NCBI GenBank assembly: GCA_001724265.1 | Contig: MEDY01000119.1 | Location: 62,001-108,592, forward strand | Direction of reading: 5' to 3' | Length of the DNA: 46,592 nt | Source of the DNA: Rhizaria sp. SCN 62-66 | Taxonomy: Eukaryota | Part shown: positions 9,001 through 43,682 of the stretch, piece by piece | Position numbering within the stretch: the first letter of the stretch is position 1 | How the letters are laid out: each line of letters starts with the position of its first letter | Program-made: the position numbers and the translations under genes | Notes under the pieces: generated by a model | Told to the model about the DNA's origin: nothing | Databases searched by the model: none | Seen by the model: the letters and a program-made list of their open reading frames with translations, nothing else

Positions 9001-12000
9001 TCGCTCCTGGCGCTCAACCTCAATTCTCAGGCTGCCGCTGCGTCTGCAGGGTCGGTCAAGGAGGGCGATGAGCCCGCATCTAGCCCGCTTGACGACAACG
9101 AGTTTGAGAAGCCTTCTGACGAGGCCCGCGCGCGCGCCCTCGCTGCGGCAGACCCGTCTGCGCCGAAAGTCACGTTTGGCGTCGCGCGCCGCAAGAACAA
9201 GGACGGCGATGATGACAACGACCGGCCCCCGTCGTCTCTTGAGAAGGAGGCTGCCGACACAGCTGCGGCCGCAGAGGCTGCTGAAGCTGCGACGGCGGAG
9301 GCGGTGACTGCTCTGGCGCAGGCTGAGGCTGAGGCTGAGGCTGCGGCCAAGGCCGAGGCAGAGTCAGCTGCCAACAGTGCCGCCGCCGCCGCCGCTGCCG
9401 CCGTCGCTGCGGAGATTGCAGCCAAGCGCCAGGCCGAGGAAGAGGCTGAGGCTGCTCGCCTGGCCGCTGTAGCCGCTGTGGCCGCTGCCGAGGCCGCGCG
9501 CTTGGCCGCCGAGCAGGAGGCCGCGCGTCTAGCCGCCGAGGCTGCTGAGACCGAACGCAAAGAGGCCGAGGCTGCCGCGGCGCGCACCGCAGAAGAAGAG
9601 CGCTTGCGCGCGGAGGCCGAGGCCGCCGCCGCTGCTGCCGCTGCTGCCGCCAAGGAGGCCCAGCTTGAGGCACTTCGTCAACAGAAGGCTGCTCTTGAGG
9701 CCGCCGCTGCGGCCGAGGCCGCTGCCGCCGCCGAAGCCGCCGCCGCTGCTGCTGCTGCCGAAGCTGAGCGCGCGCGCCAGGAGGAAGAGCGTCTCCGGGC
9801 TGAGCGCATCGCCGCTGAGACTGCCGCAGCGGAGGAGGCTGCCCGTATTGCCGCTGAGGCCGCCGCCGCAGTCGCCGCCGCTGCTGCCGCCGAGGCTGCT
9901 GCTGCCGCGGAGGCTGCCGAGGCAGCCGAGCGCATTCGCGCTGCTGCACTGGCAGACCTGTTGCGCGCGCTTGACGCTGCCGACGCTGAGACCGAGCGGC
10001 TTGAGGCTGAGGCCGCGGCGCGCGCCGCTGAGGAGGCCGCCCGCACCCTGGCGCGCGCCCACCGCGAGGCTGCTGAGGCCGAGGCGCGTCGCGTGGCCGA
10101 GGAGGAGCGCCTCGCCGACGTCATGCGCCAAGAGCGGCTCACCGCCCTGCTCGCCGCGGAAGAGGAACGCGAGCGACGCGAGGAGCTCGCCCGTCTCGAG
10201 GCCGCCGCCGCCGCCGCTGCCGCTGCGGCTGAGGCCGAGCGCGTGAAGCGCGCAGCTGAGGCTGAGGCTGCGCGCGCGGCTGCCGCAGAGGCCGAGCGCG
10301 AGGCGATGCGCGAGGAGCAGGAGCGCCAAGCTCAGCTTGCCGCGCTGCTGGCGGCCGAGGACGAGCGCGAGCGCGAGAAAGAGCTCGCCCGCGCGCGCGC
10401 CGCCGCCGAGACGGCCGCCGAGGAGGCCCGCCTGCGCCGTGAGGCCGAGGATGCTGCACGCAGGGCTGCCGCGGAGGCCGCACGGCTCGCAGCCTAGCAG
10501 GAGGCCGCGCGCCTAGCCGCGGAGGCCGCCGAGGCCGAGCGTGTGCGCGCTGAGGAGGAGGCCGCGCGGCTGGCGGCGGAGGCGGTCCAGCGCGCGCGCC
10601 TTGAGGCCGAGCGCGAGACCGAGCGCGAGCGCCAGCGCGCGCTGACCCAGCTGCTCGCCGCACTCGACAAGGCCGAGCGCGAGGAAGAAGAGGAACGTGC
10701 GCGCGCTGAGGCCGCCAGGCTCCTCCGCGTCGAGGCTGCGGCTGCGGCCGAGGCTGAAGTGCTGCGTCTGGCCGAGGAGGCCCGCGTGCGGCGCGAGGCC
10801 GAGGCTGCCGCGCGCGCCGCCGCCGAGGCCGAGGCGGCCGCGGAGCGCGTCCGCCAGAAGCTGTTGATGGCGCTGCTGCTGGCCGAGGAGGAGCGCGAGG
10901 TGGCCGAGGAGCTGGCGCGGCTGCGGCGCGAGAAGGAGGAAGCTGAAGCCCGCGAGCGGGCGCGCCTGGAGGCAGAGGCCGCCGAGGCCGCGCGCCGCAA
11001 GGCCGAGGAGGAGGCCCGCCTCGCGGAGCAGGCGCGGCTCGCCGAGGCCGCGCGTATCAAGGCCGAGGAGGCCAAGCGCAAGGCTGAGGAGGAGGAGCGC
11101 GCTGCTGCCGAGGCCAAGCGCAAGGCCGAAGAGGAGGCGCGCCGCGCTGAGGAGGCTCGTCTGGCCGAGGTTGCGCGCCTCAAGGCTGAGGAAGAGGCCC
11201 GTCTGAAGGCCGAGGAGGCGAAACGCAAGGCTGCCGAGAAGCAGAAGCGGCTCGAGGCCAAACGGAAGGCTGAGGAGGAGGCCCGAGTCAAGGCCGCCGC
11301 GGCGGAGGAGGCGCGCAAGGCTGAGGAGCGCAGGCTCGCGCTGCTCGAGGCGGAGCGCGTTGCGCGTGAGGCCGAGGCCGCGGCGGCTGAAGAGGCTGCT
11401 GCGGCGGCGCGGCTCGCGGAGCGACAGGACCCCCGCGCTGCCCGCGAGGCGCGCCGGCGCAAGGCCGAGGAAGAGGCCGCCGCACAGACCGCCGCGCTCA
11501 AGGCTGAGGTCGCTGACGAAGAGGCGAGCAAGAAGGCCGCCGAGGAGGCCAAGGCGAAGAAGGAGAGCGATAAGAAGGCCAAGAAGGACGCTGCGGCGGC
11601 TGCCAAGGCGGCCGAGGAGGAGGAGCAGCGGCGCGCGATGGCTGAGCTGAACCTGACCGCTGAGGAGGCCGCCAACGTGGAGCTGCGCGAGAAGAAGGGC
11701 AAGGTCAAGGCCGCGCAAAACGGCATGATTTTCGACGATAACTGGCACGACTTAGACCTCAGCGAAGCCGCCATGGACGCTGCACTGGCGCAGGACGCGG
11801 ACCTGTTCGACGAATACGTGTGCATGCATCTGCAGTCGCTTGAGCTCGAGCGCGTTGGCTTCGTTGGCTATCCCTATATCACCGTCGAGCGGCTTGACCG
11901 CACGGCGTGGGACCGCATGGGCGTGACAGAGATCAGTAACGGACAGCAGAGCTGGCTGTACCAGCCCCTCGTGCTCAACTTCAACAAGCTTACCGGCCGC

Positions 12001-13905
12001 GAGGGCACCAACCCCGTGCGACTGCAGTACTGGAACAACAACCGCGACGCCTCGCCGAGCGTGGTGGGCCAGAACACGGCGACATTTTCGACACTGACGC
12101 AACTTCGCGACGCCGGGCAGCCGCTGTACTTGTACCGGCCCGACTCGGACGCCAAGCGCGTGCCGAAGAACAGCGTGGGCAAGCTGATGGTGAAGAACCT
12201 GACCAAGTACTACAACACCACTAAAGCAGTCACAAGCTCGGACAAGCCGCGCGGCCGGTTGTTCCTGCAGGAGAATACCGACTGCCTGGTGCGGTTGCAG
12301 TTCGAAGCCAAGTCGCTTGACAAGGTCTCGCTCGTCGGCAAGGACGACACGTTTCTTCGTTTCTACCGTGCCAGTGACGCCTCTTTTATTAAGGGCAAGC
12401 GCACTGGCGGCGACGATGACTGGGAGCGCGTGCATGACACCGAGATCAAGGAGCACACGTCGTCGCCTCACTTCGACATGTTCGTGCTGCCCTCTGCGCT
12501 GCTGTGCAAGTGCGAGTATGACCGCCCGATCCTCATCCGCGCCTACGCCGCCGCGGCGCTGGGCTCGCCGACCGCGATCGGTCAGTTCCAGACCACGGTT
12601 CGCCAGCTGCTGTTTAACCCCGTGCGCAAGTACCCGATGATCAACGCGGAGAAGCAGAAGGCTTCGGCCAAGTACAAGCACTCCGGTACACTGACTTGCA
12701 ACGTTGTCCACGTCTTTTCGTCCGTGGAGACGGTCACGGCCGCTGCCCGCTACTCGCTTGCCCAGCAGTCGTCGAAGCGCAAGCTGCAGTCGCTCGAGGC
12801 CGCGTTGAAGCCCTTCCTTGCCTTCCTGAACCGCGGTGTCATTAACGCTCAACTCACTGCCGCGGACGCCGCCACGCTCCAGCAGCAGGTCGTGGCGCGG
12901 CTCGACAAGGCGCGGCAGGCCGTGAAGAAGAACGTGCGCGACCTCAAGAAGGCCGCGGACCAGGACCTGCGCGCCACTGCGTCCAAGGATCTGCTGGATG
13001 AGATCGACATCAAGACGGCGCGCGGGCAGGACAACATGCTCGCATCTGTCGCGATGCGTTCTTCCACCAGCTCCAAGCACGCTGGCGGCGGGCTCGCGTC
13101 CATGAAGGGCTCGGGCCTCGGCTCGGTCAAGGGCGGGATCGTCGCAAACGTGGACGCCGCGCTGGACCCCGACGCGTACTACAGTTGGCAGTTCCGCGCT
13201 ACGGGGCTGCCCAAGATGGACACCTTCGGCGTGACCGACCCCTTCCTGGAGGTTTCGTGCTTCCAGAACGGCAACTGGGTGCCTTTCCTGGCCTCGGACG
13301 TCGCCGAGAACGCACGCGCGCCGCGCTGGGAGCCGCTCGTGGGCAAGATCAAGTCGCTACTGAGTAACTGCGACCAGCAGCACCCGCTGCAGCTGCGCGT
13401 GTGGAACTGGAATAAGGCCGGCTCGCCCACACTCATTGGCCAGGCTGTCGTGCCCCTCGCCTCGCTGGTCACGGGCATCGCCATAACGGGCACCGTCCCC
13501 GCTGTGGCGGCGCCTTCGTCGAGCTCGACGCCGCCGACCATTGCGCCCGGGCAGCTGCTGCTGGAGCTCAAGAACCCGAACAAGAAGGACAAGGCTTCGG
13601 GCTTCCTCGTGCTCGAGGGCGCGGAGGCGCTGACGGACAAGCGTCAGCGCCGCACGCTATACATGATCGCCCAGTCGCGCGTTGAGGAGAACACGATGAG
13701 CGAGAAGGAGGCTGCGCAGCTGCTGAAGCAGATGGAGGCACGTCCCGGCACAAACCATGCCAGCTTTGGCGATAGCGCGGCCGGCACGGGAAGTGTCTGG
13801 GAGGGCATGAGCGACCGTGAACTATTGATGAGCCAGGCCGCGCGGCCCAAGACGGTATTCTCGCCCACGAACAGGAAGTCTAACCGTGGCAGCATCGGCA
13901 AGTAA
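1..13905 (+). CDS. Giant (at least 4634 aa, 5'-truncated) Ala-rich protein with a long Glu/Ala/Arg/Lys coiled coil and three C-terminal copine-type C2 domains; reads through one in-frame TAG (10495-10497)
   Basis: Frame is open from base 1 (CAG GCT GAG CGC...). ORFs 49..10497 and 10543..13905 share a frame and are separated only by TAG in the middle of the EAARLAAE repeat. Ends at TAA 13903-13905 followed by AT-rich DNA. C2-like segments lie at about 11815-12200, 12280-12720 (LQFEAKSLDK..KDDTFLRFYR..WERVHDTE..LCKCEYDRPILI..IGQFQTTV) and 13177-13620 (WQFRATGLPKMDTFGVTDPFLEV). Confidence 0.85.
9250..11700 (+). repeat. Low-complexity coding repeat (EAARLAAE / KAEEEAR type) forming a predicted coiled coil or single alpha helix
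   Basis: About 800 codons dominated by A/E/R/K with recurring units such as AEEEARLK, EAKRKAEEE and LAALLAAEDERER. Boundaries are approximate. Confidence 0.85.
10495..10497 (+). other. In-frame TAG inside coiled-coil repeat (probable sense codon)
   Basis: GCA GCC TAG CAG GAG GCC GCG CGC = RLAA*QEAARLAAEAAE. The sister repeat at about 9500 reads RLAAEQEAARLAAEAAE. Confidence 0.85.
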
Positions 13906-14506: not shown

Positions 14507-17343
14507 TCACGCCATCCTCATCTTCTTGACACCAACCATAAGTGAACCTTTACTGTCGTCGTTCACCGGCGTTGCACTTGCACTCCTGCTCTGAGCATCA
14601 TTACCAGCAGTTGCAATGGCAACCAAGCTTGCATTGCCGTACGACGTGTTCCCACCCGTGCTAGGAACAGGCGTGCTGATCGAGGCACCGGCACTGCCGG
14701 TGGCGACTGCAACTGCGACGGCAGCGGCCTCGAGCTCTGCGCCCAGCGCCAGGTCGCCCGCAAGCCGGGCGACGTCGGCCGGCCGCCGGCCTTGCGCGTC
14801 GCGCGCGCGCGGGTCCGCGCCGCGCAGCAGCAGCGCGCGGCACAGCACGCCGTTGCGCCGCATAGCCGCAATGTGCAGTAGCGTGCGCGCGCCAGCGGGC
14901 GCTGGCGCCGGTGCCAGTGCAAGGGGCACGGCCACCGTCAACAAGGCAGACGCAGATGTAGGAGCGGCGCCAAGAGCACTGGCGTTCGCGGCAGCTCCGA
15001 TGTTTGCAGCAACATGGGTGGGTGCAGCAGAGACTGCGCCGTTAGCATCTGTCATCGCCATTACTCCGCCGTTCGCCTTGTTCGGGGTTAGATTGTTGCT
15101 TGTCGCAGCCTTGTCAGTAAGCTTACCACCCAAACCAGAATTAGCGTTGGTGTTCTGCAAAGTGCCCGCGCAGTCGATCAGAGCGCCCGCGTCGAGCAGC
15201 GCAATGGCAATTTCGGTGTATGACTTAAGAGCAGCAATCATAAGTGGCGTCAGGCCGTCGTGCGCGCGCGGGGACGGACGCGCACCGGACAGCGTCACCG
15301 TTGACGCACTGTTGCTGGCGTTCGTCGTGATGCGTGGACGCAGCAAGGTTGCGACGACGGAGAAGTGGCCGTTTTGGACTGCCTTGTACAGCGGGGTCAC
15401 CCCTTCAACAAGAAAGTGATACAATTCGAAAAAGATCACATATTGAGTGAAATGACGATTGAAATCAGCCTGCAAAAATCCATTGAGCTTTCAGATTTGT
15501 CGCCTGGAAACGTACCGTCCGCCCGTGCCCTGTCGGGATCGGCCCCGCCCCTAAGCAGCGCCGCAACTGAGTCCGCGTGGCCATTCTGAGCCGCCGCCAG
15601 CAGCGCCGTGGAGCCGTCCCCGGCCGCCGCGGCGTCCACGGGCGCGCCGGCCGCCAGCAGCGCCACGATGGCGCCTGCGCGGCCCGCCTGCGCGGCGAGG
15701 TGGCAGGCGGTCAGCTGGGTTCCCCCGGCACGAGTGCACGGGTCAGCGCTGAGATGAAACAAAGATATACAACAATTATTACAGGATGTCGTCCAAGCAT
15801 GAGTACAGGTGCACATTTGAGACTGCGAGCGATGATACAGTGGACGCAAAAAAACAACACCAAACAAAATCCGTTTGAGGTTAAGTTCAACATTTGTTTT
15901 CATATCAACGTACCGCATTTTGATGAGTTGAATCACACAATCGGTGTAGCCGCCCGCGGCCGCAGTATGCAGCAGCGGCCAGCGGCCCTCGTCTGTCCCC
16001 ACCGAGTTCAGCACGCAGCTCACAGGCATAGACTCGGCTTCGCTCACAGCAGCGGCAGCAGCAGCAGCCTCAGCGGCGGCAGCGGCGGCGCGGGCGGGCG
16101 CAGCGGCGGCGCTTGCAGCAGCAACAGCGGCAGCAGCGGACAACACGACGTCAATATCGCCGTCGCCGTCGACGTCGGCTCTGGTCCCTGCACCTGACAC
16201 ACTCAGCCCGCAGTTGCCCTTGGCCACCCTGGCTTGGGCTGTAGCAGCAGCGCGCGCCGCAGGCGTCGCAGCCGCGCCGCCAGAGAGCGCCGGCGGATTG
16301 ATGTGCGCGACGTCGAAGCCTTGCGCGAGCGTGGCGCGCCAGGCGGCCTCGCGCTGGCGCTCCGCAGCGGCCACGGCCGTCGGCGACGGCGGCAGCGGCA
16401 GCGGCACCACTACGCCCGACGCCGCCGAGGAGAGCGACACGGTCGAGTCCACGGAGCTGTCACGGGACACGGGGGCAGCGGGCGCAAACGCGGCCTGGGA
16501 CGCCCCTGACTGCTGTTGCTCGGTTGGCGCCATGGCGACTGCGGTTGATGTTGCTGCTGCCGCTGCTGCTGACGTTGAGAGAAGGAGTGGGGGGCGGCGT
16601 TGAGGGCGGCCACGAGCAAGGTTCGGCGCAAATTGAGTCAGAGCAGAGGTGGTAGAACCGACAGCACCACCACTAAGCGCTCTTGTCGTCGTGCCGTTGA
16701 AGCTAGAGCTTGAATCAGAGGCGAAGCTCGAGTTTGCAGAGCTTGAGTTGCTGGTGTTCATATTAATACTACCAAAGGCGCTCGCAGGAACGCGCGGACC
16801 AAACATAGGCGTAAACACAGCGTTTGTCCTGCCGTCCGCGCGCTGTGCAGCAGCAGCCGCAGCGTTGGCCGCGGCGGCAGCGGCGGCGGCAGCAGCGGCA
16901 GATGTCGCGACTCGCGGCGCGGGGGGCTGCACCGGGCAGACAAGCGCAGCGGCCAGTTCGGCGTCGTCGCAGCGGGACAGCCCGCACGCGGCGTGATAGG
17001 ACACAAGCAGATGCAACACGGCGCTGTGCCCGCGTTGTGCTGCTGAGTGCACAGCCGCGGCGAAGCTATCCGCGAATACGCCTGGGGGTAGTAGCGGCAG
17101 TAGGTGCGAGAGTTCGGCAACGCCACCGGCCCGGGCGACATCGAGGAAGCGGCGTGTAGCCTGGGGCGCATTCGAGCGTGTACCAGAAGTGTGTCTAACA
17201 GGTATAGAGAGCGGGGATGTGGATCGCGTGCCTGACTGTTGCAGTGCAAGCGGGGAGATGGAAGTGGCAGGAGCAGCATTGAGGTCCTAGCCTGCGTGCA
17301 GGTTCAGCGGGGATACCCCGATGTTTCCGGCAAACTTCGGCAT
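14507..17343 (-). CDS. Ankyrin-repeat protein, about 852 aa; exons 17343-15914, 15748-15516, 15402-14507; in-frame TAG at codon 19
   Basis: Ankyrin motifs: FLDVARAGGVAELSHLL, AVHSAAQRGHSAVLHLL, PLLHTAAAGGYTDCVIQL, TACHLAAQAGRAGAIVALL, TALLAAAQNGHADSVAALL, TPLYKAVQNGH, TPLMIAALKS, TLLHIAAMRRNG. Two phase-compatible introns restore RARADGVTPLYKA. ATG 17343 directly follows AT-rich DNA; ends TGA 14509-14507. Confidence 0.85.
15403..15515 (-). other. Spliceosomal intron (113 nt, phase 1) of the ankyrin gene
   Basis: GTACGT donor and ...TTGTTGAAG acceptor, AT-rich. Removal joins ORF 15436..17052 to ORF 14507..15475 within an ankyrin repeat. Confidence 0.85.
15749..15913 (-). other. Spliceosomal intron (165 nt, phase 2) of the ankyrin gene
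   Basis: GTACGT donor and ...TTTCATCTCAG acceptor, AT-rich. Removal gives IQLIKMRADPCTR, a normal ankyrin turn. Confidence 0.85.
17287..17289 (-). other. In-frame TAG near the N-terminus of the ankyrin gene
   Basis: Reads MPKFAGNIGVSPLNLHAG*DLNAAPATS... in frame with the ankyrin repeats. There is no other in-frame ATG before the first repeat. Confidence 0.7.
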
Positions 17344-17536
17344 CAAAAATAAATTGTTATCTTACGAAATCTTTACGAAATACTATCGAAGCTATTATAT
17401 GCACGAAGCACGAAGCTTTCAACACACAATTTCAGAGCCGAGAAAAGTCATCAGACCAAAGCAAGACGAAGAATAGCAATTGTATTAGAGGCTGGTGGTT
17501 GTCAGCGTAAGAGAGGTGTTTTCCGCGCAGTCACAC

Positions 17537-20500
17537 TCAGAGCGCAGCCTTCATTCTGAAGGCCTTCCTGCCCGCGGCGTACTCGCCGAGGCGCTCCCCC
17601 GCGGCGGCCGCGGCGGCGACGACCCGCGCGAAGCCCCAGTGCGGGATTGCCCGCGCCGCCGCTTTGAGCGCCAGCATGTCGTCGGCGTCGCGCGCACGCC
17701 CACAGAGCTGCAGCAGCTGCAGCGCAAACTCGGACAGCACTTCGCGCTGCTCTGCCGAGCCGCCCACTGCGGCGATGGCGTCGGTGGCGTGGCCGCGCAG
17801 CATCACGCCGCATTCGCTGCCGCTGCTGCTGATGCTGCTGCCGTTGTGGCCATTGCTGCCGCTGTTGCTGTGGACGCCGAGCGAGAGCGCGGAGCTGCCC
17901 GCCAGCGCAGGCAGCGACAGCACGTGCGCCGGAGCAGCGGCAGCGGCGGCAGCGTGCGCGTGGGCGTGGGCGTGGGCCGAGATGTCGACTGTGAGCGGCA
18001 TCGGCGGCACGGCCACGAGACTGAGGCCCGCGCCGTCCGCGGGCCCCGCAGCGACGGCGGCGCGCGCGACTGCCAGCGCGATGACCTCACTGTCGTCACA
18101 GCCGCCACCGCCGCCGCTGATGCCGCCGCTGTCGCCGTCGATGTCACTGTCTTCGTTGTCGTCGTCGCAGTAGCTCTCGATGAGTGCGGCCACACTGCTG
18201 CTGCCGTTGCCCCCGTCGGTCGAGCGCAGAGAGGAAGAGGAGACAGAGCCTCCGGGGGGCGCGTTCACAAGCAGCGCCAGCGACGCCGGGAGCAGCAGCG
18301 CGGGCGCCATCAAGCCGACGCTGCTGACCGCGCTGCTGATGCTCGGCGCGTGAGAGGCGCGGCCTTGCTTAGCGCTGCCGCTGTGAGAGCTCGCCGTCGC
18401 ATGGCCCGGGACCGTTGTGCTGGCAGTGAAGGTCGCTGCCGCGGCGGCGAGCGCGGCGGCTTCATCCGCAAGCACGGCGTCGCCAAACAGGGCCAGCGCC
18501 TGCGGGTCGGCCTGCTCACGGTCACCATCGAGCCCATGGTCACTGTCGTGCTCACGGTCACTTGCGTCGCTCTCGTCGTCGCTCGCGCTAGCACTGGCGC
18601 TCGCACTCGCCGTAGCGCCCGCACTCGACGTCGCGCCCGCACCCGCGCCCGCGCTCGCTGTCGCGCTCGAACCGCGGGCACGGCTCGGCGGCTTAGGACT
18701 GCCCGCCCCAGCGCTCGCGGCGCCGGCGTTGGCGGCAGCGTTGGCGGCAGGGTTGGCGCCGGGGCTGAGGCGGCGCCTGCGGGCCCCCAGCAGCGGCGAG
18801 GCGCCGGAGCCTGCCTTGGCGCTGCCGGCACCAGCGCTCGCAGCTGCAGCAGCCGCCGCCGTTGCGCCGCTACCGCTGTTGTTCGTGCTGCCCGCTGCGA
18901 CAGCGCTCGGCGGACTGGCCGGGCTGGCCGCCGGGGCGACGACTGGCGAGACGCCCGCGCTGCTCCCCGCGTTGCTGGCCGCGGCGCTCGCGTTTGCGCT
19001 GGCGGCGTTTGAGTTGCTCTGGCTGCTGCCGTTGCCGCCATTGCCGCCCCCGCTGTGCGCGCCGCGGATGGCCGCGGGCCCTAGCAGCGGCGCCAGAGTG
19101 TCGGCCGCGGCCGCCACGCCGCCGCGCGCCCAGAGCCTGACGGCGGCGAGCACAGGCAGCAACGCGCGGTCGAGGCTGCCGCGACGCGGCTCGGGGGACC
19201 GGTGCACAGCGACCGCGGCCGAGGAGGCGAAGGCGTCGAGCACGTCCTCGACGGCGGCGCGCGCGGCGGCCGAGAGGACCAGCGGGGACAGGTCGTGTGA
19301 GGCCAGCGCGGACTAGGCGGCGGAGATGCTGCTGGCGCTAGCGCTAGGGCTGCTGTTGCTGGGGTTAATACCGAGAGCAATAAACAGTGCGGAGACAGAA
19401 GCAGCAGGGTTGATCTCACTGTCAATCTGCGCATCGGCACCACCACTTTCAGCATTCACAGTCACATTCGTGTCGTTGTTAGTGCAGTCGCCGCTGCCGC
19501 TGTTGCAGTGGAGGTACGGGCTGTGCGCGATGACCGCGGCGGCGACGGCCTCGTCCTTGGCGGCCCGTTCCACGCGCGCCAGCACGTACGCGGCCATGAT
19601 GTCGTAGAACGGGTCCGCGTGCGACGGAGACCGGTGCTTCAAGTACTTAAACACGCTGCGGAAGCGCGCGTTGAGCAGCGGAACCGTGTCGCAGTACGGC
19701 ACAACGGCCGACAGCGCACGCAGATATGCCGCGTCGCTAATATACACCGAACTCGCACCTGCACTCACATTCAAGCCAGAGTCTGCGTCGGTAGAGCCCG
19801 TGCTGCTGCTGCTGCTGCCGCTGCTGCTGGTGTTGTTGTTGCTTGCGCAGGGGAAAGGCGTGGGGAACGCGGCGCGCAGAGCGAGCAGCGCGCGCGGAGG
19901 CAGCACTTGGTCCATCCACGCCAGAGAAGGCGGGAAACCAACTGCGCACGCGAGCGAACGCGACTGCGACAGCGATTGGGCCTGAGTGCGAGACTGCGAC
20001 TGCGCACCAGCTGCCGCGGCACTGGCCGCCGCCGCTGCCGCGGCTGCCGCAGCGCTGGCCGCGACGGTCGCGGCGCGCGTGTTGAGGCGCATCTCGAGCT
20101 TCCAGAGCAGCCCTGCGGCGCCGAGCTGGTCCTGGCTCGAGTTGGGGTCCTGCAAGGGGAATGGCGGCGGCAGCGACGGCAGCGCCGCGCCCGCGGGCAG
20201 CGCGTCCTGCAGCAGCGCGTGCGGCAGTGGCAGCGGGGCAGGCGCGGCGCCGGCGCTACCGGCATCGCTGCCGCTAGTGCCACTGCCGCTGCTGCTGCTG
20301 CCGCTCGGTGTGACTGAGGGGTCGTTGGCGGCGCTGGCACGATCGAACCAGAGCAGCTCGCGCATGGGGCACTCGAACGCACTGTTGGAGCTGGCACTCG
20401 ATGACTGCTGTTGTTGACTGTCGTTGCTGGCGTTGCCGTTGCCGTTGCTGCGGGCAGCGCGCTTGCGGCGGTCCTTGAGGGCCGAGAGCACCCAGAGCAG

Positions 20501-22226: not shown

Positions 22227-22821
22227 GCCCACTGACAGTATGTGTAGACGGTGTGGCGGTACGGGCCTATGATGTGTTGCGGTTGTGGAGAGAGACAGGG
22301 GTTCAGGTGAGGGACGCAAGGACAGTGTCGCGTGACGTCAAGACAGATCGCAGAATTGAAAGTGGACTATTTAGCGCCAGAGTCCGTCACTAAGCGCATA
22401 GTTTTAAGGGCAAAAGACAACTTAAGAATTTCAAATAATAACGATATTATATGCCCTATGCTTGTTTTCCTGATGGTGTTGCGCTATTTTAGTGACTACC
22501 CCGGGACCGACTCTTGAACGCGCTAGCGCGCCCCCCTCACGCAAGTCCGATTCCCGCACTTGTCGGGATATATCTTGTTATAAGCAATGATACTAGGGTA
22601 CTCGATTCATAGTATTAATATTTTATTTCATAACACGTGTATCATTGACATATCTCACTCACAACAACTTCTATCCCGACTTTCTCTTCTTTGCCCTCTC
22701 GCACCACCAATCCGAAATTTCGCACACACGCGTGCGCGCCACAAACAGCTTCAAAGCAGCGTATCACTTGACCACATATCACAGTTTGGAGCGCCGTATT
22801 TTGCTTTGCAGCACCCCGCCG

Positions 22822-32345: not shown

Positions 32346-35300
32346 ATGGAACCCCCTGCCCCCGAGGGCGATGCTGCTGCTGACGGCTTCATTCCGTTCC
32401 GCGCGTATCACCTGGTGACGGACTGCGAGCAACTGGTGACGGCCCCAGGCCACCCGATGGGCTCGCTCCGCAACGCCTACCCGTCCACGCTCGCCTGGCC
32501 CCACATGCGCGTGCTGCGCGTGCTTGCCGCCCTATCAGGCGCACTCGATCTTCACGAGTTGCCGCTCACACAAGCTGAGGCCGAGATTGCCGATGCCAGC
32601 GTTGAAGACGCTGAGGCCGTTGCCCAGGTACGCTATCTTCTGACTTAGACTTTGGATTGCAAAGCAGATATCATACCTCCACCAATACGTTACCATATCA
32701 AGACAGATCATCCATATTTATCACAATTTCTTTATTTTATACTGCATTTCAATCTACCATCCTCACGATACTGTATCTTGCGTCGCTGTCCTGCTCAAAC
32801 TATTCCCAGGAGATTCTCCGCCTCGAGGTCGAGACCAAGCAGGACGACCAGGTCCTCGGCCTCTACACGGGCGCCGTCGACGCCAATGACATCTGCGCCG
32901 ACAGCAACGAATGCAACGGCGGCCGCGCCCTTCTCCCGCCCGCGCTGCGCAGCGCCATGCTCGCGCGCGCCAAGGGCGGCCCGCTCGGCGTGGGCCACGC
33001 TGGCGACGGCTCCAACGCCGCCCCTGCTGCTGCTGCGACGACAGTGCCGAGCGTGACCGTGGGCGGCTCGCTCGACGACGAGCGCATCGAGAACCTTGCC
33101 CTCGCCCTCAACATCAACGGCTCTGACGCGAGCACGAGCGCCGACGCCGGCGCCACGATCGCCAGCGCCAGCGCCACCGGCGTCGTCGGCTGCGGCTCTC
33201 TGCTCGCCTCCCCCGTCACGCCCCTCTCCCCGGAGCTCCGGGCCAGCGCCCAGGCCGCTGGCGCTGCGGCCGCGGGCGCCTCCGACGCCCGCAGCAGCAG
33301 CAGCATCAGCAGCGTGGTCTCGGTGCCCGGCGACGTGCTCTTCTCGCCCCAGTCGCCCGGCGCGGGCGCGGACGCGGGCGCGGACGCCGTCGTTGCGGTC
33401 TCCGGCGACAGCCGCAACCACCACGGCGGCGGGGGCGACAGCGACTTTGCGTTCTCGCCCCCGAACCAGCGCCAGACGGCCTTCAAGCCGCAACAGCCGC
33501 AGCCGCAGCCGCAGCCGGCGGGCAGCGCCGCCCGCAGCAAGGGCGGTAAACCCACTGCCTCTGCTTCCGCGTCTGCGTCTGCCTCTGCGGCTGCGGCTGC
33601 AGCTGCAGCTGCCGGTGCGACGAATGGCGGCGCGAGCGCCAGCGGCGTGCGGTGCGCGCCGTCGGTGATGGTGCCATGCAACACGGACGGGCTGAGCGAC
33701 GGCGACCTCGAGTCACTGCACAGCTCTGACTCGGAGGCGCTGTCCTCGTCCTCCGAGGACGACGACGACAACGGCGCCAACATTACAGGCGTCAACAACA
33801 CGAACAACAGCAACGCGCCGAAGAGCAAGAGCAAGAGCAAGAGTAAGCGGAAGGGCAAGAAGTTCCAGTCCCGCCCTGACGGCGACGACTCGGACTCTGA
33901 CACGACCGAGGACGACGAGGACGACTTTAACGCCAACGCCGGCGGCGGCAGCGGCTTCCCGTTCGGGCTCACGCTGCACACGAGCAACGCGAGCAGCGGC
34001 GCTGCCCACCGCGTGGGCCCCGGCGGCGCCAGAACGCCCGCGCTCGGCCTCGTGGGGCCCGCTGGCCTGGCCACGCCCGTCGCCATGGCCGACACCAACG
34101 CGACCTTCTACGGCGCCTCGGCCTCCGCGCCGCCCACGCCGCTGGCGCCCGCGCACGAGGCGGGCAGCGCGAGCACCTGCGATACCAGCAGCTCCGCGGC
34201 CCAGATGGGCGCGCTCATCATCACCGCGGCCAACGCCGACTCCAACGGCAGCGGCAGCAACAACAACAATAACAATCAGCAACAGCAGTGTGGCGTCGGC
34301 GGCACCGGGGACGTGGCGGTGCCGTCGCGCCCGTCCGTGTCGCTGCAGCCGCGGCCGAACTCGCGTCTGACGGCCGTCTCGGCCTCGGTCTCGCCGCACA
34401 TGCGCCGCCTCTCGCGCTCGCTCCTGCCCCCCGCGCTCGACAGCAACAACAACAGCAGCAGTAGCACAGGCGCGTACACGGTGGACGGCGACTATTTCCC
34501 GAGCACCATCACCAACAGCGCCAGCAGCAACAACCTCGCCAACAACAGTCTGGCACTGGGCCTCGGCCTCGGCCCCGGCTTCACGCCGCGCGCGCGTGAC
34601 CCCGTCTCGGCGTCGGCAGCGGCCACGCGCGCGCGCATGGCCGGCTCCGTCATGTCCGGGCTGTCGACGCGCGACGAGCTACGCCGCCTTGCGCTCCCGC
34701 CCTCGCCCTTTCCGCGCACCTTCGCCGGCTCGCTCTCGCCCGCGCCCGCGCCCGCGGCGTCCAGCGCCGGCGCCAGCGCGGCCGCAAACCGGGCGGGCGG
34801 CTCGCTGCTGTCGCCTGCGGCTTCCGCGCACAGCCACTCGGCCACGCCGCCCGACGCCCCCGCCGGCAACGCCGCCATGACCGCGGCCTCGATCGGCGCC
34901 AGCATGGCGAGCGCGCTGGGCAGCGGCGTGCTGCGGCTGGGCACGCCCGCGGCCGATGTGCGCGGCGCGGACCATTTCGGGCTCGCGCTGAGCGTGCCGC
35001 TGGCGCGCAAGGGCACGCCGATGCCCTTCAACCCGCGGCCCGTGGACTACACCCCGCTGCCGCACCGGCACGACTACCTGGGCCGCCACCTCACGCCGGC
35101 GCCCACACCCACGCCTGCGCTCTCGCCCGCGCCCGGGGCGGCGGCGCACACCGCGGCCGGCGCCCGCGCCGGCGCCAACGCCGGCGACTACTCCGCCAGC
35201 GCCAGCGCCAGTGCGAGCGCGACGCCCGTGGCGCACGTGTTCGGCGCGCTCAACAGCGCAAGCAACTACAGCGGTTACGTGGTCACGGGCACCACGCCGC

Positions 35301-38300
35301 TGCCGCTGGCACTGTCCGCCGCGGGCGGGCCGGCTGCCGGCGGGGTGGCGTCGCCGTTCGCGGGCGCGAGCCCCGCAGCGTCGGTGCGATCGCTGTCGGC
35401 CGTGCCGCGCCTGCCCGCGAACGCGCCCGGCATCTCGCCGCTGCCACCCCCCACCCCTGCGGCGGCGACTGGTGACACGCCGGGGTCCGCCACGCGCGCT
35501 CTCGCGCTCGCCACAGGCGCACCCAGCGACGACGAGAACGGGCTGCCGCCCCTGTCGGCCATTGCCACCTCCCACGCAGGCGGCAGCGCGAGTGCTAGCG
35601 AGTGGGGCGCGATGCTGCCGCCTTTCTCGCCCGAGTCGTCGGCCGCGGCCACCGTCGCTGCGCTGCCGCTGACGCAGCCGCTGCACGACGGTGCCGCTGA
35701 GGGCGCGGCCGCGCAGGACGCCGCGGGCCAGGGCAAGCCGCAGCACCACCTGCACCACCGCGGCGCGGGCGCGGGCGACCTCCGCGGCAGTCTCGGCGGC
35801 GCCGCGCTGCTGGGAAGCATTCAGGTGCGTTAATTTCGAACAAAAACAATACTTTAATCCTTCACATTTGTTAAAATGTCGTTTTATCTTATCTTTATCT
35901 TTTTTTCTGATGATCTCATTCATGCTGTACTTTTATGCTTGCTCGCTCTTTGTTTCCCTCGATAGGAAGAGGACTCTGGTATCTTCGGCGAGACATACCA
36001 AGGCTCTAACTCCAACAACGCCCATGTTGGCAACAACATGTTGACGCTGTCCACCAACTTCGTCTCGGGCTCTATGCTCACACCCGGCGGCAACGCCGGC
36101 AGCAGCGATGCCAACGATTACTCGGACGCTGCCGACGCGAAGCCCCTGACCCTGTTCGCGTTCATCCGCAAGTACTCGCGCTTCTACCTCAAGTACTTGT
36201 ACCGGCTGGCCTTCTGCCTGGCCGTGCTGGTCCACACGCTCATCGAGCTGCACATCGCGTCCTTCACACCGCACGCGCTCTTCCTCTCGCTCGCCGCCGT
36301 GCTGTCCTTTGTCGCCGCGGCGGGCGCGCTCTACGTCGGCGCCGAGGTCGCCAGCGACCGCGTCATCCCCACCGTGCTGGCCGCCACGCTCGCCAACGCC
36401 GCGGGCCCCGTCGAGCGCCAGATCATGGTCACGCGCGCGCGCGCCGGACTCGCTAAGGCGATCGTGGTGGCCATCTTGCTGGGGCTCTGGGGCATCACCT
36501 CGGACTGGTACCACGGCAACGACATGCTCGCTTCGGCCTACGCCGCCGCCGCCGCCGCCGCGGCCACGCGCAGTCGGCACAGCCACAGCCTCGCGCTGGC
36601 CCGCGCCGGCTTCGCAGGCGGCTCCGCGGGCGCGGACGGCGACGACGCCGCCTTTGCGGACGACGCGGACGTCGACAATGACGTGGTGCTGGTGATGCCG
36701 CACGATATGCGGCCCGACGCGTACGCCTCCGTGGCGCTCTCCACGGCCGCGCGCGCGGCCGCCGCGGTCGGCAAGGCCGGCTCAGCCGCGGGCGATGCGG
36801 GCGCAGTCGTCGGCCGCTCGATCGGCGCCACGACCAAGGGCGCGCAGCTCATTGGACAGAAGGTGTTCACCATGGGCGCGACCGCCGCCGATGCTGCCGA
36901 CGCGAGTGGTCCGGCTGCCCCTGTCGCGACTGCTGCCGTGGTAGGAGCTTCCGAGATCGAGGTTGAAACCGTTCTTGACAACAGTGGCGATGCGAGTGAC
37001 GTCACCGCTAAGGTTCAGAGCCTGAAGAAGGCCAAGACTGCCGCTAACGCTGACATTGCCACTGGCGATAACAACACCAACAGCAGCGTTGTGACCGTTA
37101 AACTGATGCCTGTTACCGAGCAGCTCTCCGACTCGATCGTGAGCTCTCTCGCCCACACCGACTCTCACGTCATCGGTCCCATCGTTGACGCTAACGCGAA
37201 CGCCACTAATGCCGTCGCCAATGCTCCTAGCGCGGTCGATGACGGCAATAAGGCGCTCACGTCTTCGTACGAGCTTGCCAGCGCGCTGCTCAACATCCTT
37301 CACGTCTCCGAGGCCATCACCAACGGCGACGCCGTTGCTGACAACAGCGTTACGCCCACGGAGACTGCGCCCGTGAAGCACAACGGAGATGCTGCCGGTT
37401 CGAAGCACAACAAGGGCGCCGCTGCGACCGCTGCTGCCGACTCTGGCGCTGACGACGCGGAGAACAGTGCCGGCGATGGCGAGGGCGACGCCGAAGACAG
37501 CGACGCGACCGTGGGCCGCCACGCGTACCTGCGCAAGCCGCCCGCGGTGGCCGTGGCCAACGGCAAGGCGGCGCCGTGCACACTGCCCACGGCGACACGC
37601 CCCGGCTACTGCCCCGTGCCCGCGCGCGAGCCCGTGCCTGCGCTGCGCACGGTCATGGGCAGCCTGCTGGGCCCCGACATCCACACGCCCACGACCAAGA
37701 GCGGCCGCCGCAAGGCCGCGCGCGCCGCCGCCGCTGTCGCCGCCGCGCGCCGCGCCCAGTCCCTCGTGGCGGCCGCGCGCGCATCTGCGGCCGCGGACGA
37801 CGCTGAGACCGAGATCGAGGCCGAACCCGTCGTAGTCAACCCCGCGGCGGCCGCGGCGGCCGCGGTGGCGTCCGGCGGCGTGGGCCGGCCCGAGCCGCCG
37901 CTGCCGCTGTACCACCGGTTCAACCTGGAGGACGACGGCGCGGTTGAGGCCGTGACCGAAGCCGAACTCCAGTTCTCCGGCGTTGGCGCGCACGTGTCGC
38001 CCTGGCTGATCCGGCTGTGGCAACTCACGTCGCTGCCGCTGCACCTCCTGCTCACATCTGGCGTGGCTCTCTATGTGTGCTACGTCTTCGCGCTCAAGGT
38101 TCGCATGCGCAGCGCGAACCGCGTGATCTCGGCCGAGCTGTGCGCGCCGGAGCACACTAAGGCGCGCGTCATCGACCTCGAGGTGCTTGTGTGGGACCTC
38201 ACGGCGCGGCTGAACCCGTACATGGCCGTGATCCTGCTCGCGGTCATGATGAAGTTCGTGTCGCTAACGTTCTACATCGTCGCCAGCGACCCCGAGTCGC

Positions 38301-38638
38301 GCTACGTGTCGCGCGTGTGGGAGAAGGCATACTTCCTCTTCGGCGTTGCGGTGCAGCCGCCCGTGCTGCTGCTGCTGGTCATCTTCGCGCTGGGCGGGCT
38401 CAATAGCGAGTGCGACTTCCTGCGTAAGATCATCGCGCGCGGCTTCATCCAGCAGACCGGACTGGAGAAGGGCTCCGCGCGCCAGGCCGCCGCGCTCATG
38501 GAGTTCACCAAGAAGGCGGAGATCTCACCCACGCTGCTCGGTATGCACGTCAGCTCGCTTACCGCGCTCACCACGCTCGCATCCGGCGTCGCTTTCTACC
38601 TCACCATGCTCAAGTACAAGTACCGCCAGTTCATCTAA
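32346..38638 (+). CDS. Seven-transmembrane protein, about 1989 aa, resembling gustatory-receptor-like (7TM ion channel) proteins; exons 32346-32627, 32810-35824, 35966-38638
   Basis: Two phase-0 GT-AG introns join ORFs 32346.., 32657.. and 36038.. in frame. Three hydrophobic helices at about 36190-36510 and four at about 38020-38620. C-terminus ISPTLLGMHVSSLTALTTLASGVAFYLTMLKYKYRQFI. Ends TAA. The gene model is solid; the family call is tentative. Confidence 0.75.
32628..32809 (+). other. Spliceosomal intron (182 nt, phase 0)
   Basis: CAG|GTACGC donor and ...TATTCCCAG|GAG acceptor, AT-rich. Confidence 0.85.
35825..35965 (+). other. Spliceosomal intron (141 nt, phase 0)
   Basis: CAG|GTGCGT donor, pyrimidine tract, ...CGATAG|GAA acceptor, AT-rich. 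Confidence 0.85.
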
Positions 38639-39245: not shown

Positions 39246-40818
39246 TTAAAAGCGACGCACCCCGCCACCGCGCATGACCTGCGTGAACGCGTTGCTGCCG
39301 CCATACACATCGTCGTCGTCGTCGCCGTCGTCGTAGTAGTCATTGCTGTTAACGCCAAACTCACCGCCCATGAATGTCCGAGCCTGCTGCGGTTGCTGCT
39401 GCTGCAGCTGCTGTTGTTGCTGCTGCACAAAGAGCGCACCACCAGGTCCGCCCAGCAGCCCGCCCAGATACACGCTGCGGCCGCCACCAGAGCTACTTCC
39501 GCTGTTATCATGTGCAGCCGCAGCTGCCTCTTCGTCGAAGGCTTCACTCGGTCTAGTCATCCCGCCGTCGCCGTCGTTGTCATGATCGCCCCACGCGTGG
39601 CCGCCGCCGCCCCACTGTGCGCGCGCCTCGGCCGCGCTCATCACGTGCGCCTGCTGCCCCTCGACCCCGTCCGCGCCAGCCGTCACGAAATTAAGCCGCG
39701 CGCTCCCGCGCTCGCGGCGCTGGCGCTCCTCCTCCAGGCTGCGCAGCGTCTCCGCGGCGCGCGCGCGCACGTACGCGCGCTGCTGCGCGGCGGCCGCAGC
39801 GCCGCGACGGGACGCCGCCTGCTCACGTTCAGCTGCGGTGGCCAAAGCGCCGTTAGCGGCTGCGCCAAAGTGTGCGCGGTCGCTCGGAGCCAGCTCCATC
39901 CGCCCCGCATTGCGACGAGACTGAGTCTTCTGACTGCCGTTAGCCCCCGCGCCGAGTCGCGAGCCCGCCAGCGCGGCCGTGATGCCGAGCGTGCTCCGGA
40001 GGAGCTCGTCCTGCGCCCGTGCATCGGCCTCGGCGGCGGTCGCGGCCTTGGCGGCGGCGCAGGCTTGCGCGCGCGCACGCGCCTGGGCCTTGCGCGAACT
40101 CTTGCTGCCACTCGCCTCACTGCCGTCTTCGTCATCGTCCTCGTCCTCGTCCTCGTCGTCGACGCCGTCGCGGTCCTCGTCCTCGTCGACCTCGCTGCCG
40201 TCGCCCATACCCGTCTGCTCGCTGTGGTGGCCGCGCAGCCGCGGCAGCGGGTCTGTGCGGCCGTAGCCCAGCACGGCGGGGTGCCGGCTGTCGTCGTCAC
40301 AGTCGTCGTCGTCCGTCGCGTCGCGGTAGCCCCGCACGTCGTCGTCGTCACTGTCATAGTCGTCATCGCTGTCGGCAAAGCCACTGCCGCGGCTCTTGCC
40401 CCGGCCGCTCGGACGGCCGCCATCGTCGTCGTCGTCGCCGTTGTCGCCGTCGTACTCCTCATCCGGGTAGTCGATGTCGCTGTCGTCCGTGTCAAACCCC
40501 GCCGCCAGCGCGCCGCCGCGGCGGCCCCATTCGTCCTCGTCTTCGCTCCCGCTTCCGCCGTCCCCCGCGGCACCGCCACGGCTCGCACGGCCGCGGCCGG
40601 GACCGCGGGCGTCGTCGCCGCGGCGCCGGGAGCCGCGCGCGTCGGCCGTGGAGTCGAAAACGAGCTCCTGCTCCTGCAGCAGCTCCCACACGTCGAACTC
40701 GTCGAAGTCGTCCGTCAGCAGCTCGCTCAGACTCACCGTCGCGCCGTCCAGCGCACCCAACTCGTCACCGCTCGGCGCGACGCCCCCGCCGCTGCCACGG
40801 CCGCTACTGCTACTGCTG

Positions 40819-40853
<35 letters not shown>

Positions 40854-43682
40854 GCGGCGCCTGCGCAGAGCGTCGCTGACGTGCGAGATGAACGCGGTGA
40901 GCGATGGCGTGTGCACATGGGCGAACGCGCCGTAGCCGTACGCGCTGCTGGTCAGGGCCGCTGACTCGGCGTCGGCAATGGCGGCAGCGTCGCCACCGTC
41001 TTCAGCAGCAGCAGCGGCGTTGTTGGCGTCAGCCGTCGTGTTCCTCGCGTCGTTCACGTGACTGGTGCTGGTAGTAGTAGTCCTACTGTGGTCTGTATCG
41101 TCGCGACCACGCTTGCGCCCGCGCGACGCCGCAGAAGTTAGGCCGCCAGCCGTGGAAGCTTGGCCGCCCAGCGCGTCCCTGCGGCGCAGCAGGTCGCCGA
41201 CAACTGCGGCTGCCGAGTCGCCGTGCAGCTTCATCGCGAGCGCGACCGTGAGCGGCGCCACCGTGAGCGGCGCAGCAGATCTCGCGGCAGAGGCAGACGC
41301 AGTCAGTGTGCGCCCGCCGCCGTTGCTCGCGGGCAACGCGGGCATCGGGAGACAGGTGTCGCTGTCACTGCGGTTGCCATCAGTGGTGCCCCCGATACTG
41401 AACGCAGGCCGCGGGCGCTGCGCCTGCGTCATGTGCGCGTCGCGATTGTTCTGGGCGTTCACAGAGGCAGCGTCGACTTCGACCAGCTCGTACAGGTCGT
41501 ACACGTCGTCGTCGCCGCCATCAGCCTCGCTGTCGCTGCTGCTGCTGCTGCTGCTGATGTCGTCAACAACATCACGCGCAGTCTTCGCCGAAGGCGTCGC
41601 CGCAGCGCTCGTCCTGGCGCTATCATGTGCATCCCTCCTGAGATCGACTGTAGCCACAGCGCGAATTGAGCCGTTCGCGCTCGTTGTCTCCGTCGTTGCA
41701 GCACTAGCATTCCCGTTATCGACAATCGCCGAGACCGTCGCTGCCGCAGTGTCCGTCGCCGCCGCAGTACTCGCGGTGGCGCCCGTGCTCGTGCGGGCGC
41801 GCGCGGCGGCGGCGGCAGAGCGCCCACGCGCGACGGGCTTGAAGCTGTACGTGGCGGGGTCGCGGGCCTTGCTCACTCTGCCAGCGGCGCCGCCCAGCGC
41901 GGCTAAGGCAGCCGCGGCGGCGCTTGCGGTCGCGGTCGCGGTGAGGCCCGGGCCAGCGCTGCCGCTCGCGGAGAGAGCGCTGCCGCTGACGACACTAGCG
42001 TTGTTGGCATGCGAGAGCGGAGCCAGGGGGAGGAGTGACTGGCGGTGGTTGGTGCCGAGGAAACCCGACGCAGAGACGCCGGTGCCGGCGACAGAGCCAC
42101 CGCCAGCGGCAACAGGAGCAGCAGAGGCAGAGCTAGAGGTCGCGCTCCCAGTCCGAACATCACCATCATCGTCGTCGTCGCTGCTGCTGCTGTTACTGTC
42201 TCCGCCGAGGTGACTCAGCGCCATCTCCCCCTTAGATCCACGCGCAACCTTAGACCCACCTTTAGCCTTGGCTTCGGCGGCGGCCTTCTTACTGGACTGT
42301 GCATGTGCCTGTGCCAGCGCCGCTTTGGCGGTGAGCCCCAGTGCGCCCGCGCCGGTCCTGCGGGAGGCAAAGTGCGCCAAGTATGCCGCCACGTCGGGGT
42401 CCATAGCACTGGCGGCCGCGGCGGAGGCTTCGGTGTCGGCGAGGTCGCTAGTGAGCGAGCCAGCAGCGCGGCTGGCGGCGCTACTGGTGGCTTTGTTTGC
42501 GACAGAAAGGGTTGCAGTGTGAGTGCCCGATGCAGCGCTAAAGGGACCGAAAACAGGCTTTGCGACCGCGTTGGTAGTTGCAGCCGTGGGCAGGCGCAGG
42601 ATGTGCTTGCCATTGACCATGGGGGCAACGTCGATGAATGCAGTCGCAACACCCGCACTCGCGCTTTCGGAGAATGGCGTCTCGGACATAGCAGCATTAG
42701 TACTGCTGCAGCTGCTGCTGCTGCTGCCGGAGGCTGGTTGCAAGCTGAGAGCGTGCGCGTGCTCAAAGTCGAGCCGCGCCTTGTTCGACATCAGACCAGC
42801 GCCGTTACTCCCACTCCCACTTCCGCTCGCAGTCGCGGTCGCGGTGGCAATCATACCCGCAATAGGGGTGGCGCTAGAGCTGTAGCTAGAGTTGGAGCTC
42901 GAGCCAGCATTAGAGCTGAGGTTGTTGCTGCTAGCGTGAAACGACGGGATGGTCGTAATACGGCGCCAGACCAACGCCTTTGGCCCCTGCTATCCCTGTT
43001 GCCGTTGCAGCTGCCCTGTCTCATGCTGCTGTTGTAGCTCGGTGTCGGCGTTGCCGCGACCGCTTAACTTGCTCACAAACTCAGCCGCCGCCGGCAGAGA
43101 AGAGAAGGGAGTCTCCAGTTCGGCAGGGAGCGAGGCCAAGCCGTCGGAGGGCAGCCCCGCCAGCGGCGTGTGGCTCATCGCCAGCGCGGCTGCAATGCGC
43201 GGGTCCATCTCCGAGTGAGCGATAGCGATCGCGCTCGCGCGACCGTTAGCGTTTGTGGGAGCAGGGTTAGGGTTCGAGCTTGAGCTGGCAGCGTCGGGGC
43301 CGGGTTGGGAGGACGGGGAAAGCGTGACGCGCGAGAGATGGTGCTCCAAAACAGACGCGGCCCGGGTGCCCACACTGGCAACGCCGGCGACAGCGTCAGC
43401 AGCAGCGGCAGAGATGGAGGCATTAACCGAGGCGGGGGCAGGGCGCTTGTTCGTGGGGCCGACAACAGCGCCCGCCCCAGCAGCTGCGGAAATCGAGATG
43501 TCACAGACAAGCGTCTCGTGGGCAATTTCGCGTCGGGAGCGCTTGAGACGAAGGACTTGGCGCGGGGCCGGCGCGTCTCCAGCTGCGCGGGCCGGCGCGG
43601 AGGCCGCGGAAGGACGGAACACCGGAGCGGTGTTGTCCATCGACCGGCGCTTGCTATTCAAAGGATTGCACACAGAAGACAT
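39246..43682 (-). CDS. IWR1: Iwr1/SLC7A6OS-like RNA polymerase II nuclear-import factor, about 1478 aa; in-frame TAG at 42992-42990
   Basis: N-terminal VLRLKRSRREIAHETLV (about 43556-43510), DDDVYDLYEL, and acidic GFDTDDSDIDYPDEE (40472-40455) match the Iwr1 LRxKRxR, YDxY and DYPDE pattern. ORFs 42990..43682 and 39246..42974 are one frame split only by TAG. Ends TAA. Alternative start at ATG 43640. Confidence 0.7.
40801..40851 (-). repeat. Trinucleotide (AGC/AGT)n microsatellite encoding poly-Ser
   Basis: A run of ctg/cta triplets on the + strand, read as a poly-Ser tract in the Iwr1-like gene. Confidence 0.85.
42990..42992 (-). other. In-frame TAG within a Gln-rich stretch
   Basis: Reads LQQQHETGQLQRQQG*QGPKALVWRR. 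Confidence 0.85.

Follow-up and report, generated by a model that had tools for sequence, protein, structure and literature searches.

UAG as a putative sense codon

At least three of six in-frame TAG codons in a 46,592-nucleotide stretch of DNA (contig MEDY01000119.1, positions 62,001 to 108,592, deposited as Rhizaria sp. SCN 62-66; hereafter the window, with positions counted from its first letter) are located inside continuous coding frames, and one of them breaks up a gene whose protein belongs to a conserved family. This DNA is nuclear and comes from an uncultured eukaryote of ~70% GC that recurs in wastewater, bioreactor and activated-sludge metagenomes. This eukaryote fairly probably translates UAG as an amino acid wherever it occurs in its genes. 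The original prediction made from this DNA, that UAG is decoded while UAA and UGA remain stops, gains from the homology around the TAG at 19315, from the retention of the stops across assemblies and from the absence of TAG at the seven gene ends; it loses from a GAG variant at 10495, from the site at 31787 and from the crowding of TAGs near gene starts. From the DNA we infer translation of UAG itself, as well as the tRNA and release factor (eRF1) mechanism and the amino acid inserted.

Gene models and in-frame TAG codons

Gene models were drawn from codon-position GC content and a codon-usage log-odds track, giving seven genes on both strands (eight with genes 6 and 7 split) and a further one that begins at the 3′ end. 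The six TAGs reported earlier are all present, one on the forward strand (10495–10497) and five on the reverse strand (17287–17289, 19313–19315, 22218–22220, 31785–31787, and 42990–42992); each is designated below by the coordinate of its first letter. Their rarity was likewise recovered, with 6 in-frame TAGs in the 13,040 codons of the new models (~0.5 per 1,000). The statement that no gene contains an internal TAA or TGA also holds (0 and 0 in 13,040 codons), but is partly circular, the models being bounded by both codons. Frameshifts were not found in the 13,040 codons.

Seven gene ends were located where they had been proposed, with TAA at 13905, 29820, 38638, and 39246 and TGA at 14507, 17537, and 29571. 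The DNA after them is AT-rich, as had been described, with a GC content of 0.26–0.45 in the next 120 nt; the 120 nt past the six TAGs have a GC content of 0.57–0.82. TAG is used at 0/7 gene ends, a small sample in which the ends were called without transcript 3′ ends. A further candidate end, the TAA at 35831, was rejected, as it sits just past the GTGCGT donor of a 141-nt intron joining genes 6 and 7.

The claim that each TAG joins two coding stretches in the same frame was borne out clearly for 10495, 19315, and 42992 and only partly for 17289, 31787, and 22220. Coding character was scored by codon log-odds trained on 10,163 codons remote from the TAG sites, with stop codons set to zero. The same-frame scores over 200 codons upstream and downstream are +71/+74 at 10495, +97/+82 at 19315 and +51/+83 at 42992, while the two other frames at these sites score −57 to −183 over 200 codons. 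Past these three deep TAGs, stretches of 591, 1,135, and 1,247 codons stay open with full codon bias. The in-frame score 5′ of 17289 and 31787 is near zero, yet 20–45 bits above the other frames. Off-frame, TGA is the commonest stop, with 12.7 per 1,000 codons, followed by TAG (4.5) and TAA (2.2), and the TAGs are therefore unlike the product of a misread frame.

The TAG at 19315 interrupts a conserved protein

The strongest site is 19313–19315 (−) in gene 3 (17537–22226, −), which has one intron (21426–21576), ends with TGA, carries two of the TAGs and codes for a homologue of a TPR-like family. A HMMER search with exon 2 retrieved 304 proteins at E ≤ 1e-3, most of them of 400–480 residues, with weak TPR hits as their only Pfam matches. 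This ~440-residue family, which we take to be TTC38-like, was not returned under that name by any search, and a PDB sequence search with the homologue P0030 gave no match. Among the best 150 of the 304 homologues, 10 align collinearly on both sides of the TAG. It lies in a lineage-specific insertion of 105 residues, gapped in all ten of these proteins, and the conserved family block restarts ~21 codons 3′ of the TAG in the same frame.

A family profile of 444 positions was made from 54 homologues of 400–480 residues. Exon 1 of gene 3 corresponds to profile positions 21–98 (E 1.2e-11), the sequence before the TAG to positions 99–263, 260–297, and 286–336, and the sequence past it, in the same frame, to positions 312–382 and 374–439 (i-E 2.6e-7 and 3.8e-8). 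Together the pieces span positions 21–439 of 444 in order, with an E value of 1.8e-58 for the best block. Judged by these alignments, the frame split by TAG 19315 encodes a conserved protein with a single domain, and the final ~100–130 profile positions of this protein are encoded in frame past the TAG.

Four introns, 113–165 nt long, were placed in the window from splice motifs and changes of reading frame. Their GC content is 0.32–0.39, their donors are GTACGT, GTACGT, GTACGC, and GTGCGT (GTRCGY in 4/4), and their codon score is no more than +5.5 in any frame. Two intron candidates ending at TAG 19315 were examined and rejected. The first, identified by eye at 19459–19313 (147 nt), has a GC content of 0.56 and scores +27.7 in frame versus −14.6 and −31.5 in the others. 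The second would start from GTACGT at 19589–19584, inside the conserved YVLARV block, and would give an intron of 277 nt that is out of frame. Since the candidates fail on composition, codon score and frame, TAG 19315 is placed in coding sequence.

Other metagenomes contain a less GC-rich relative of gene 3 (P0163, P0165, and P0167), on contigs 176 kb and 620 kb long; its organism is a possible outgroup. In this relative an intron lies immediately 5′ of the conserved VGGS.EQREV block, and a 913-residue spliced form is found on a 3.3-kb contig. The split of this relative into 114 + 800 residues (P0163 and P0165 versus P0167) was considered as a possible stop codon and proved to be an intron.

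The other in-frame TAG codons

The TAG at 42990–42992 (−) is codon 231 of the 1,478-codon low-complexity protein encoded by gene 8, with the same-frame coding score on both flanks. The TAG at 10495–10497 (+) lies inside a coiled coil of gene 1; the site is polymorphic, two other runs having GAG. In the ankyrin-repeat gene, 17287–17289 (−) is codon 19 counted from the ATG at 17343. This ATG sits exactly at the boundary from AT-rich to GC-rich DNA, 18 codons before the TAG, and the next in-frame Met is ~190 codons downstream. The second TAG of gene 3, 22218–22220 (−), is its codon 3: only ATG TCG precedes it, exon 1 contains no further ATG in frame, and the family profile begins ~115 codons further. 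That the ankyrin-repeat gene and gene 3 offer no alternative in-frame start ATG to the one before their TAG counts in favour of translation. The TAG at 31785–31787 (−) in gene 5 is ambiguous. It comes 59 codons after ATG 31964, which sits at a boundary from AT-rich to GC-rich DNA, and a second ATG, 31757, follows 9 codons later; the 50 codons upstream score +2.6 in frame, compared with −19 and −23 out of frame. All six TAGs fall in poorly constrained parts of the proteins, namely the coiled coil, low-complexity segments, lineage-specific insertions and N-terminal extensions.

Retention of the TAG codons in other assemblies

Sequence nearly identical to the window was found in 12 public runs from 8 studies, with over half of the sampled words present in each of X1–X4. 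The runs are labelled as metagenomes of bioreactors, wastewater, activated sludge or microbial fuel cells, and the window itself may stem from one of them. Contigs of four runs were compared with the window over 10400–30399 at 90% likeness, a stretch that leaves 31787 and 42992 outside. TAG 19315 is kept in a contig of run X3 (18820–19744, 0 differences). TAG 17289 is kept in X3 (16906–17704), X4 (16978–17584), and X5 (17253–17669), with 0 differences each, and TAG 22220 in X3 (21091–23507, 0 differences) and X4 (22073–23006, 6 differences, none at the TAG), the latter representing a strain ~0.6% diverged from the window. A contig of X7 (22025–22250) also spans TAG 22220, with just 30 letters on one side.

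Open reading frames (ORFs) called in other assemblies end at the same places. ORF P0013, present on 7 contigs, ends exactly at 19315, and both P0005 (3 contigs) and P0006 (4 contigs), from ENA, JGI-IMG, and Logan, end at codon 42992; such ORF ends attest a stop at 19315 and 42992 and not its three letters. ORF P0004 (ENA, 4 contigs, the longest of 107 kb) begins at the first GTG past TAG 10495, and from this start another assembly very probably also has a stop at 10495. Standard gene callers thus break the genes at TAG (P0004, P0005, P0006, and P0013), and the proteins are therefore truncated in public catalogues. An exact look-up of the frames 39249–42974, 29823–31757, 17540–19243, 19316–22036, and 15439–17052 returned none of them from the collection, in which other starts were possibly called. 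Two scans of metagenome contigs, queried with the C-terminal portion of gene 1 and with the sequence surrounding 42992, found no locus. Overall, of the five sites reached by other data, four are genuine in DNA and no sequencing errors (17289, 19315, 22220, and, judged by ORF ends, 42992).

The fifth site, 10495, is best read as a T/G polymorphism, with TAG at best one of the alleles. A synonymous T>C change at 10551 accompanies the G. The best paralogue of this stretch within the window is 81% identical and has GAG at the matching codon. With so distant a best match, a paralogous copy inside the window is an unlikely source of the G; a copy elsewhere in the genome is possible. Of three homologue searches, one recovered P0004, an ORF of the same organism, and nothing else; the other two, in which candidate lists filled up with low-complexity words, gave no match, which does not argue for absence.

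Relative to the window at 10650–10760 (+), P0004 has a 17-residue in-frame insertion in the alanine/glutamate coiled coil, a length variation between strains, haplotypes or assemblies.

Among 40 of the 57 variant places, 37 lie in coding segments, and one of these is the TAG/GAG site. The remaining 36 coding variants include 22 at the third codon position. In gene 3, 6/7 of the variants in this set are synonymous, such as those at 18872, 3′ of TAG 19315, at 19388, 5′ of it, and at 22209, three codons past TAG 22220. The genes of the window do not look like free-running pseudogenes.

Evidence against translation of UAG and alternative explanations

Several observations weigh against translation of UAG. 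The first concerns the gene ends: if TAG made up one quarter of stops, the probability of finding it at 0/7 ends would be ~0.13, and seven ends are too few. A second is that codon usage itself favours TAG among nonsense errors, a caveat already raised in the original prediction and quantitatively important: 1,705 codons are one substitution away from TAG, 437 from TAA and 342 from TGA, so that 1705/2484, or 69%, of random nonsense changes would yield TAG. For this reason, the occurrence of TAG alone is weak evidence; the absence of frameshifts, TAA and TGA and the conserved protein blocks past TAG 19315 are the stronger points. Usage is also low, 6 in 13,040 codons being well under that of known UAG-reassigned lineages, and no TAG occupies a conserved column, so no residue is assignable from alignment. 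Nor do the 46.6 kb contain a tRNA gene, an Rfam match or eRF1.

The position of the TAGs and the data from other runs add to these points. Half of the TAGs, three of six, fall no further than codon 60 of their genes (p ~4e-4 under an even spread). This suggests that some are leader stops, or else that unconstrained extensions at the N-terminus are where TAG is mostly tolerated. TAG 31787 in particular could belong to the 5′ leader as a stop, and a standard-code model fits it. At 10495, the sole contig of X3 has G, giving GAG, with a depth of 6.61 of 6.61, 32 letters from the contig end, and the sole contig of X5 also has G, giving GAG, with 3.3 of 3.3, 4 letters from the contig end. GAG in other reads is what the original prediction had named as telling against it, and it was found at this one of the six sites; the TAG there stands as an allele. 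Finally, although X5 is a poly(A) run, its contigs prove no mature mRNA, because one of them (15265–15579) covers the intron 15403–15515 unspliced and another (17253–17669) covers the intergenic stretch ~17400–17537 without gaps. This suggests that the library contains carried-over DNA, or unspliced and read-through RNA.

UAG could alternatively be a leaky or ambiguous stop, read through in these genes by near-cognate tRNAs or a weak suppressor and used for termination in genes elsewhere. Codes in which the same codon is stop or sense depending on context are described in the accessible text of two reports (PMC4967479; bioRxiv 10.1101/2022.04.12.488043), and both the very low usage of TAG and its confinement to tolerant regions would agree with such leakiness, as would CAG-G following 2/6 TAGs. 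No tRNA, and so no dedicated one for UAG, was detected by ARAGORN within the 46.6-kb window. Against this, TAG terminates none of the seven genes, the six sites have no downstream context in common, and partial readthrough would leave most of the gene 3 product without its conserved C-terminal quarter. We consider a leaky stop unlikely.

Under the standard code, the TAGs would be genuine premature stops, either nonsense alleles or decaying copies, for example of one haplotype in a diploid or polyploid asexual. Such an origin would agree with the excess of TAG expected from random nonsense substitutions, with the GAG allele at 10495 and with the location of every TAG in a poorly constrained, low-complexity segment. 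However, 5/7 genes would be affected with no frameshift, TAA or TGA in 13,040 codons, even though indels do arise here, as seen from the in-frame difference in P0004. The stops are retained in runs of different studies and in a diverged strain, and the variants of gene 3 are mostly synonymous on the 3′ side of the TAG too. The standard code is disfavoured because the stops are kept across studies and strain, other lesions are absent and the frames of 591–1,247 codons past the deep TAGs are intact, one of them encoding the end of a conserved family. Premature stops in five of seven genes are much less likely than translation of UAG, and this explanation is, on its own account, decidedly improbable.

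That artefacts of the gene models, namely 5′ leaders, the last bases of unrecognised introns or misassembled repeats, explain all six TAGs is very doubtful: ATG 31757 just 3′ of TAG 31787, the three TAGs close to proposed starts, the TAG at the end of one genuine intron (35965), an in-frame model for 22220 drawn by eye (ATG 22399, donor GTGACG at 22390, the TAG as acceptor) and the location of 10495 within a repeat that differs in other runs speak for it, but 19315, 42992, and 10495 are left unexplained, with flanks coding in the same frame, the intron candidate at 19315 is coding-like, the family blocks flanking this TAG share one frame, 42992 is preceded by purine-rich sequence with no pyrimidine tract, GTGACG mismatches the GTRCGY of 4/4 real introns, and the sole GT...TAG option at 17289 is 30 nt versus 113–165 nt in real introns.

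Proposed mechanism

Translation of UAG would most simply involve a tRNA with a CUA anticodon, by which UAG would be read through as an amino acid, and an eRF1 that no longer recognises UAG efficiently, with UAA and UGA continuing to terminate. UAG would be a rare codon, found so far only in poorly constrained parts of proteins. The CUA-anticodon tRNA and the eRF1 without UAG recognition are proposed by analogy with other UAG-only codes, as presented in the accessible parts of two reports (PMC5304391; PMC11687900). As for the amino acid, a hint comes from the GAG allele and the GAG paralogue at 10495, which would fit UAG = Glu and which show only the origin of the TAG; Gln and Leu are also possible. 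More tentatively, the window may represent an early-stage UAG-only reassignment in a very GC-rich and hitherto unrecognised non-ciliate, in which UAG is rare and polymorphic with GAG and Glu is its simplest reading; as a whole this is a possibility that we regard as doubtful.

Comparison with known genetic codes

If translation of UAG is confirmed, the lineage of the window joins the small known set of UAG-only nuclear reassignments. Such changes are found in a handful of lineages, and the uncoupling of UAG from UAA and the early capture of a stop codon are open questions. What would set the new member apart, if confirmed, is its extreme GC content together with a very sparse and polymorphic use of UAG, and a GC-rich lineage of this kind would, if the reading is true, represent an early stage of stop-codon capture.

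According to the accessible text of Panek et al. (2017; PMC5304391), UAG alone is reassigned to Gln in Iotanema spirale (Fornicata) and to Leu in the rhizarian exLh (Sainouroidea), the latter with 384 UAGs in 71 genes, at conserved columns, and with eRF1 sequences reported too. Like both of these organisms as described there, that of the window is a non-ciliate in which only UAG would be sense, UAG is absent from gene ends and a CUA-anticodon tRNA is proposed. Unlike them, with hundreds of UAGs at conserved columns, the window has 6 TAGs in 13,040 codons, none of them conserved, and is very GC-rich. No GC-rich non-ciliate lineage with a UAG-only code was found in the literature searched, a limited collection, and likewise no report of UAG = Glu in a UAG-only code outside ciliates.

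Macronuclear genomes of ciliates are generally rich in AT, unlike the window with its 70% GC and introns of 113–165 nt. In one oligohymenophorean ciliate, UAA is reportedly translated as Lys and UAG as Glu, with UGA as the stop; this meaning of UAG would match the GAG allele and paralogue in the window. With both codons sense, that code differs from the window, where UAA ends 4/7 genes. The uncoupled meanings of UAA and UAG in this ciliate are described in the accessible text of McGowan et al. (2023; PMC10553269).

Among phyllopharyngean ciliates, UAG encodes Leu or Gln, UAA is the preferred stop, and suppressor tRNA genes were identified, according to the accessible text of McGowan et al. (2024; PMC11687900). 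As proposed for the window, UAG alone is reassigned, and some of these codes were found in metagenome-derived eukaryotic genomes; the same account indicates wide sense use of UAG, unlike its rarity in the window. Context-dependent stop/sense codes are described for Condylostoma, Parduczia, karyorelicts, and Blastocrithidia (PMC4967479; PMC12153298, both in their accessible text). They share with the proposal for the window the translation of a standard stop codon inside genes, and differ in that the same codon terminates near the 3′ end, a role that TAG has at 0/7 gene ends here.

Other features of the window

Over most of the window the GC content is 62–73%, with AT-rich stretches of 110–1,540 bases in between. 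The encoded proteins are of low complexity and alanine-rich, with few recognisable domains; an NCBIfam search of 6 window proteins gave no match besides one of chance level, and an Rfam scan of the 46.6 kb gave no match. Atlas look-alikes, without usable taxonomy, were found for a C2 domain and a LigA-type ligase.

Gene 1 (1–13905, +), open at its 5′ end, codes for an alanine-rich coiled-coil protein of >4,634 codons with a C-terminal C2 domain (E 6e-12, ORF 10498–13902) and ends with TAA. It is followed by the ankyrin-repeat gene (14507–17343, −), which contains two AT-rich introns (15403–15515 and 15749–15913), has its ankyrin repeats in ORF 14510–17286 and ends with TGA. Gene 5 (29820–31964, −), ending with TAA, belongs to no known family, and gene 8 (39246–43682, −), also ending with TAA, encodes the low-complexity protein mentioned above.

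Genes 6 and 7 (32657–38638, +; end TAA, start uncertain) are probably one gene, as ORFs 32615–35833 and 35966–38638 share a frame and are separated by a 141-nt AT-rich intron (35825–35965) with donor GTGCGT and acceptor ...GATAG. The C-terminal part of its product contains predicted hydrophobic, membrane-like stretches.

The gene at 22822–29571 (+), ending with TGA and free of TAG, encodes an NAD-dependent DNA ligase of the LigA type, to which its nearest Atlas clusters also belong. Its domains, which fall in ORF 22597–29568, are arranged in the order PF01653 (residues 765–818), PF03120 (1569–1647), and PF12826 (1960–2006). With ~2,250 residues, found here in a eukaryotic setting, the protein has long low-complexity insertions that separate its three domains (adenylation, OB, and HhH). 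The sequence at the N-terminus, MLSSRFACARALLPRS..., resembles an organelle-targeting presequence; we offer this predicted targeting as a guess.

The region 43800–46100 is an AT-rich spacer of ~2.3 kb (GC ~0.43) that lacks any long frame, coding signal, tRNA or Rfam match. Far longer than the other intergenic spacers, it separates gene 8 from a coiled-coil repeat gene starting near 46190 (+).

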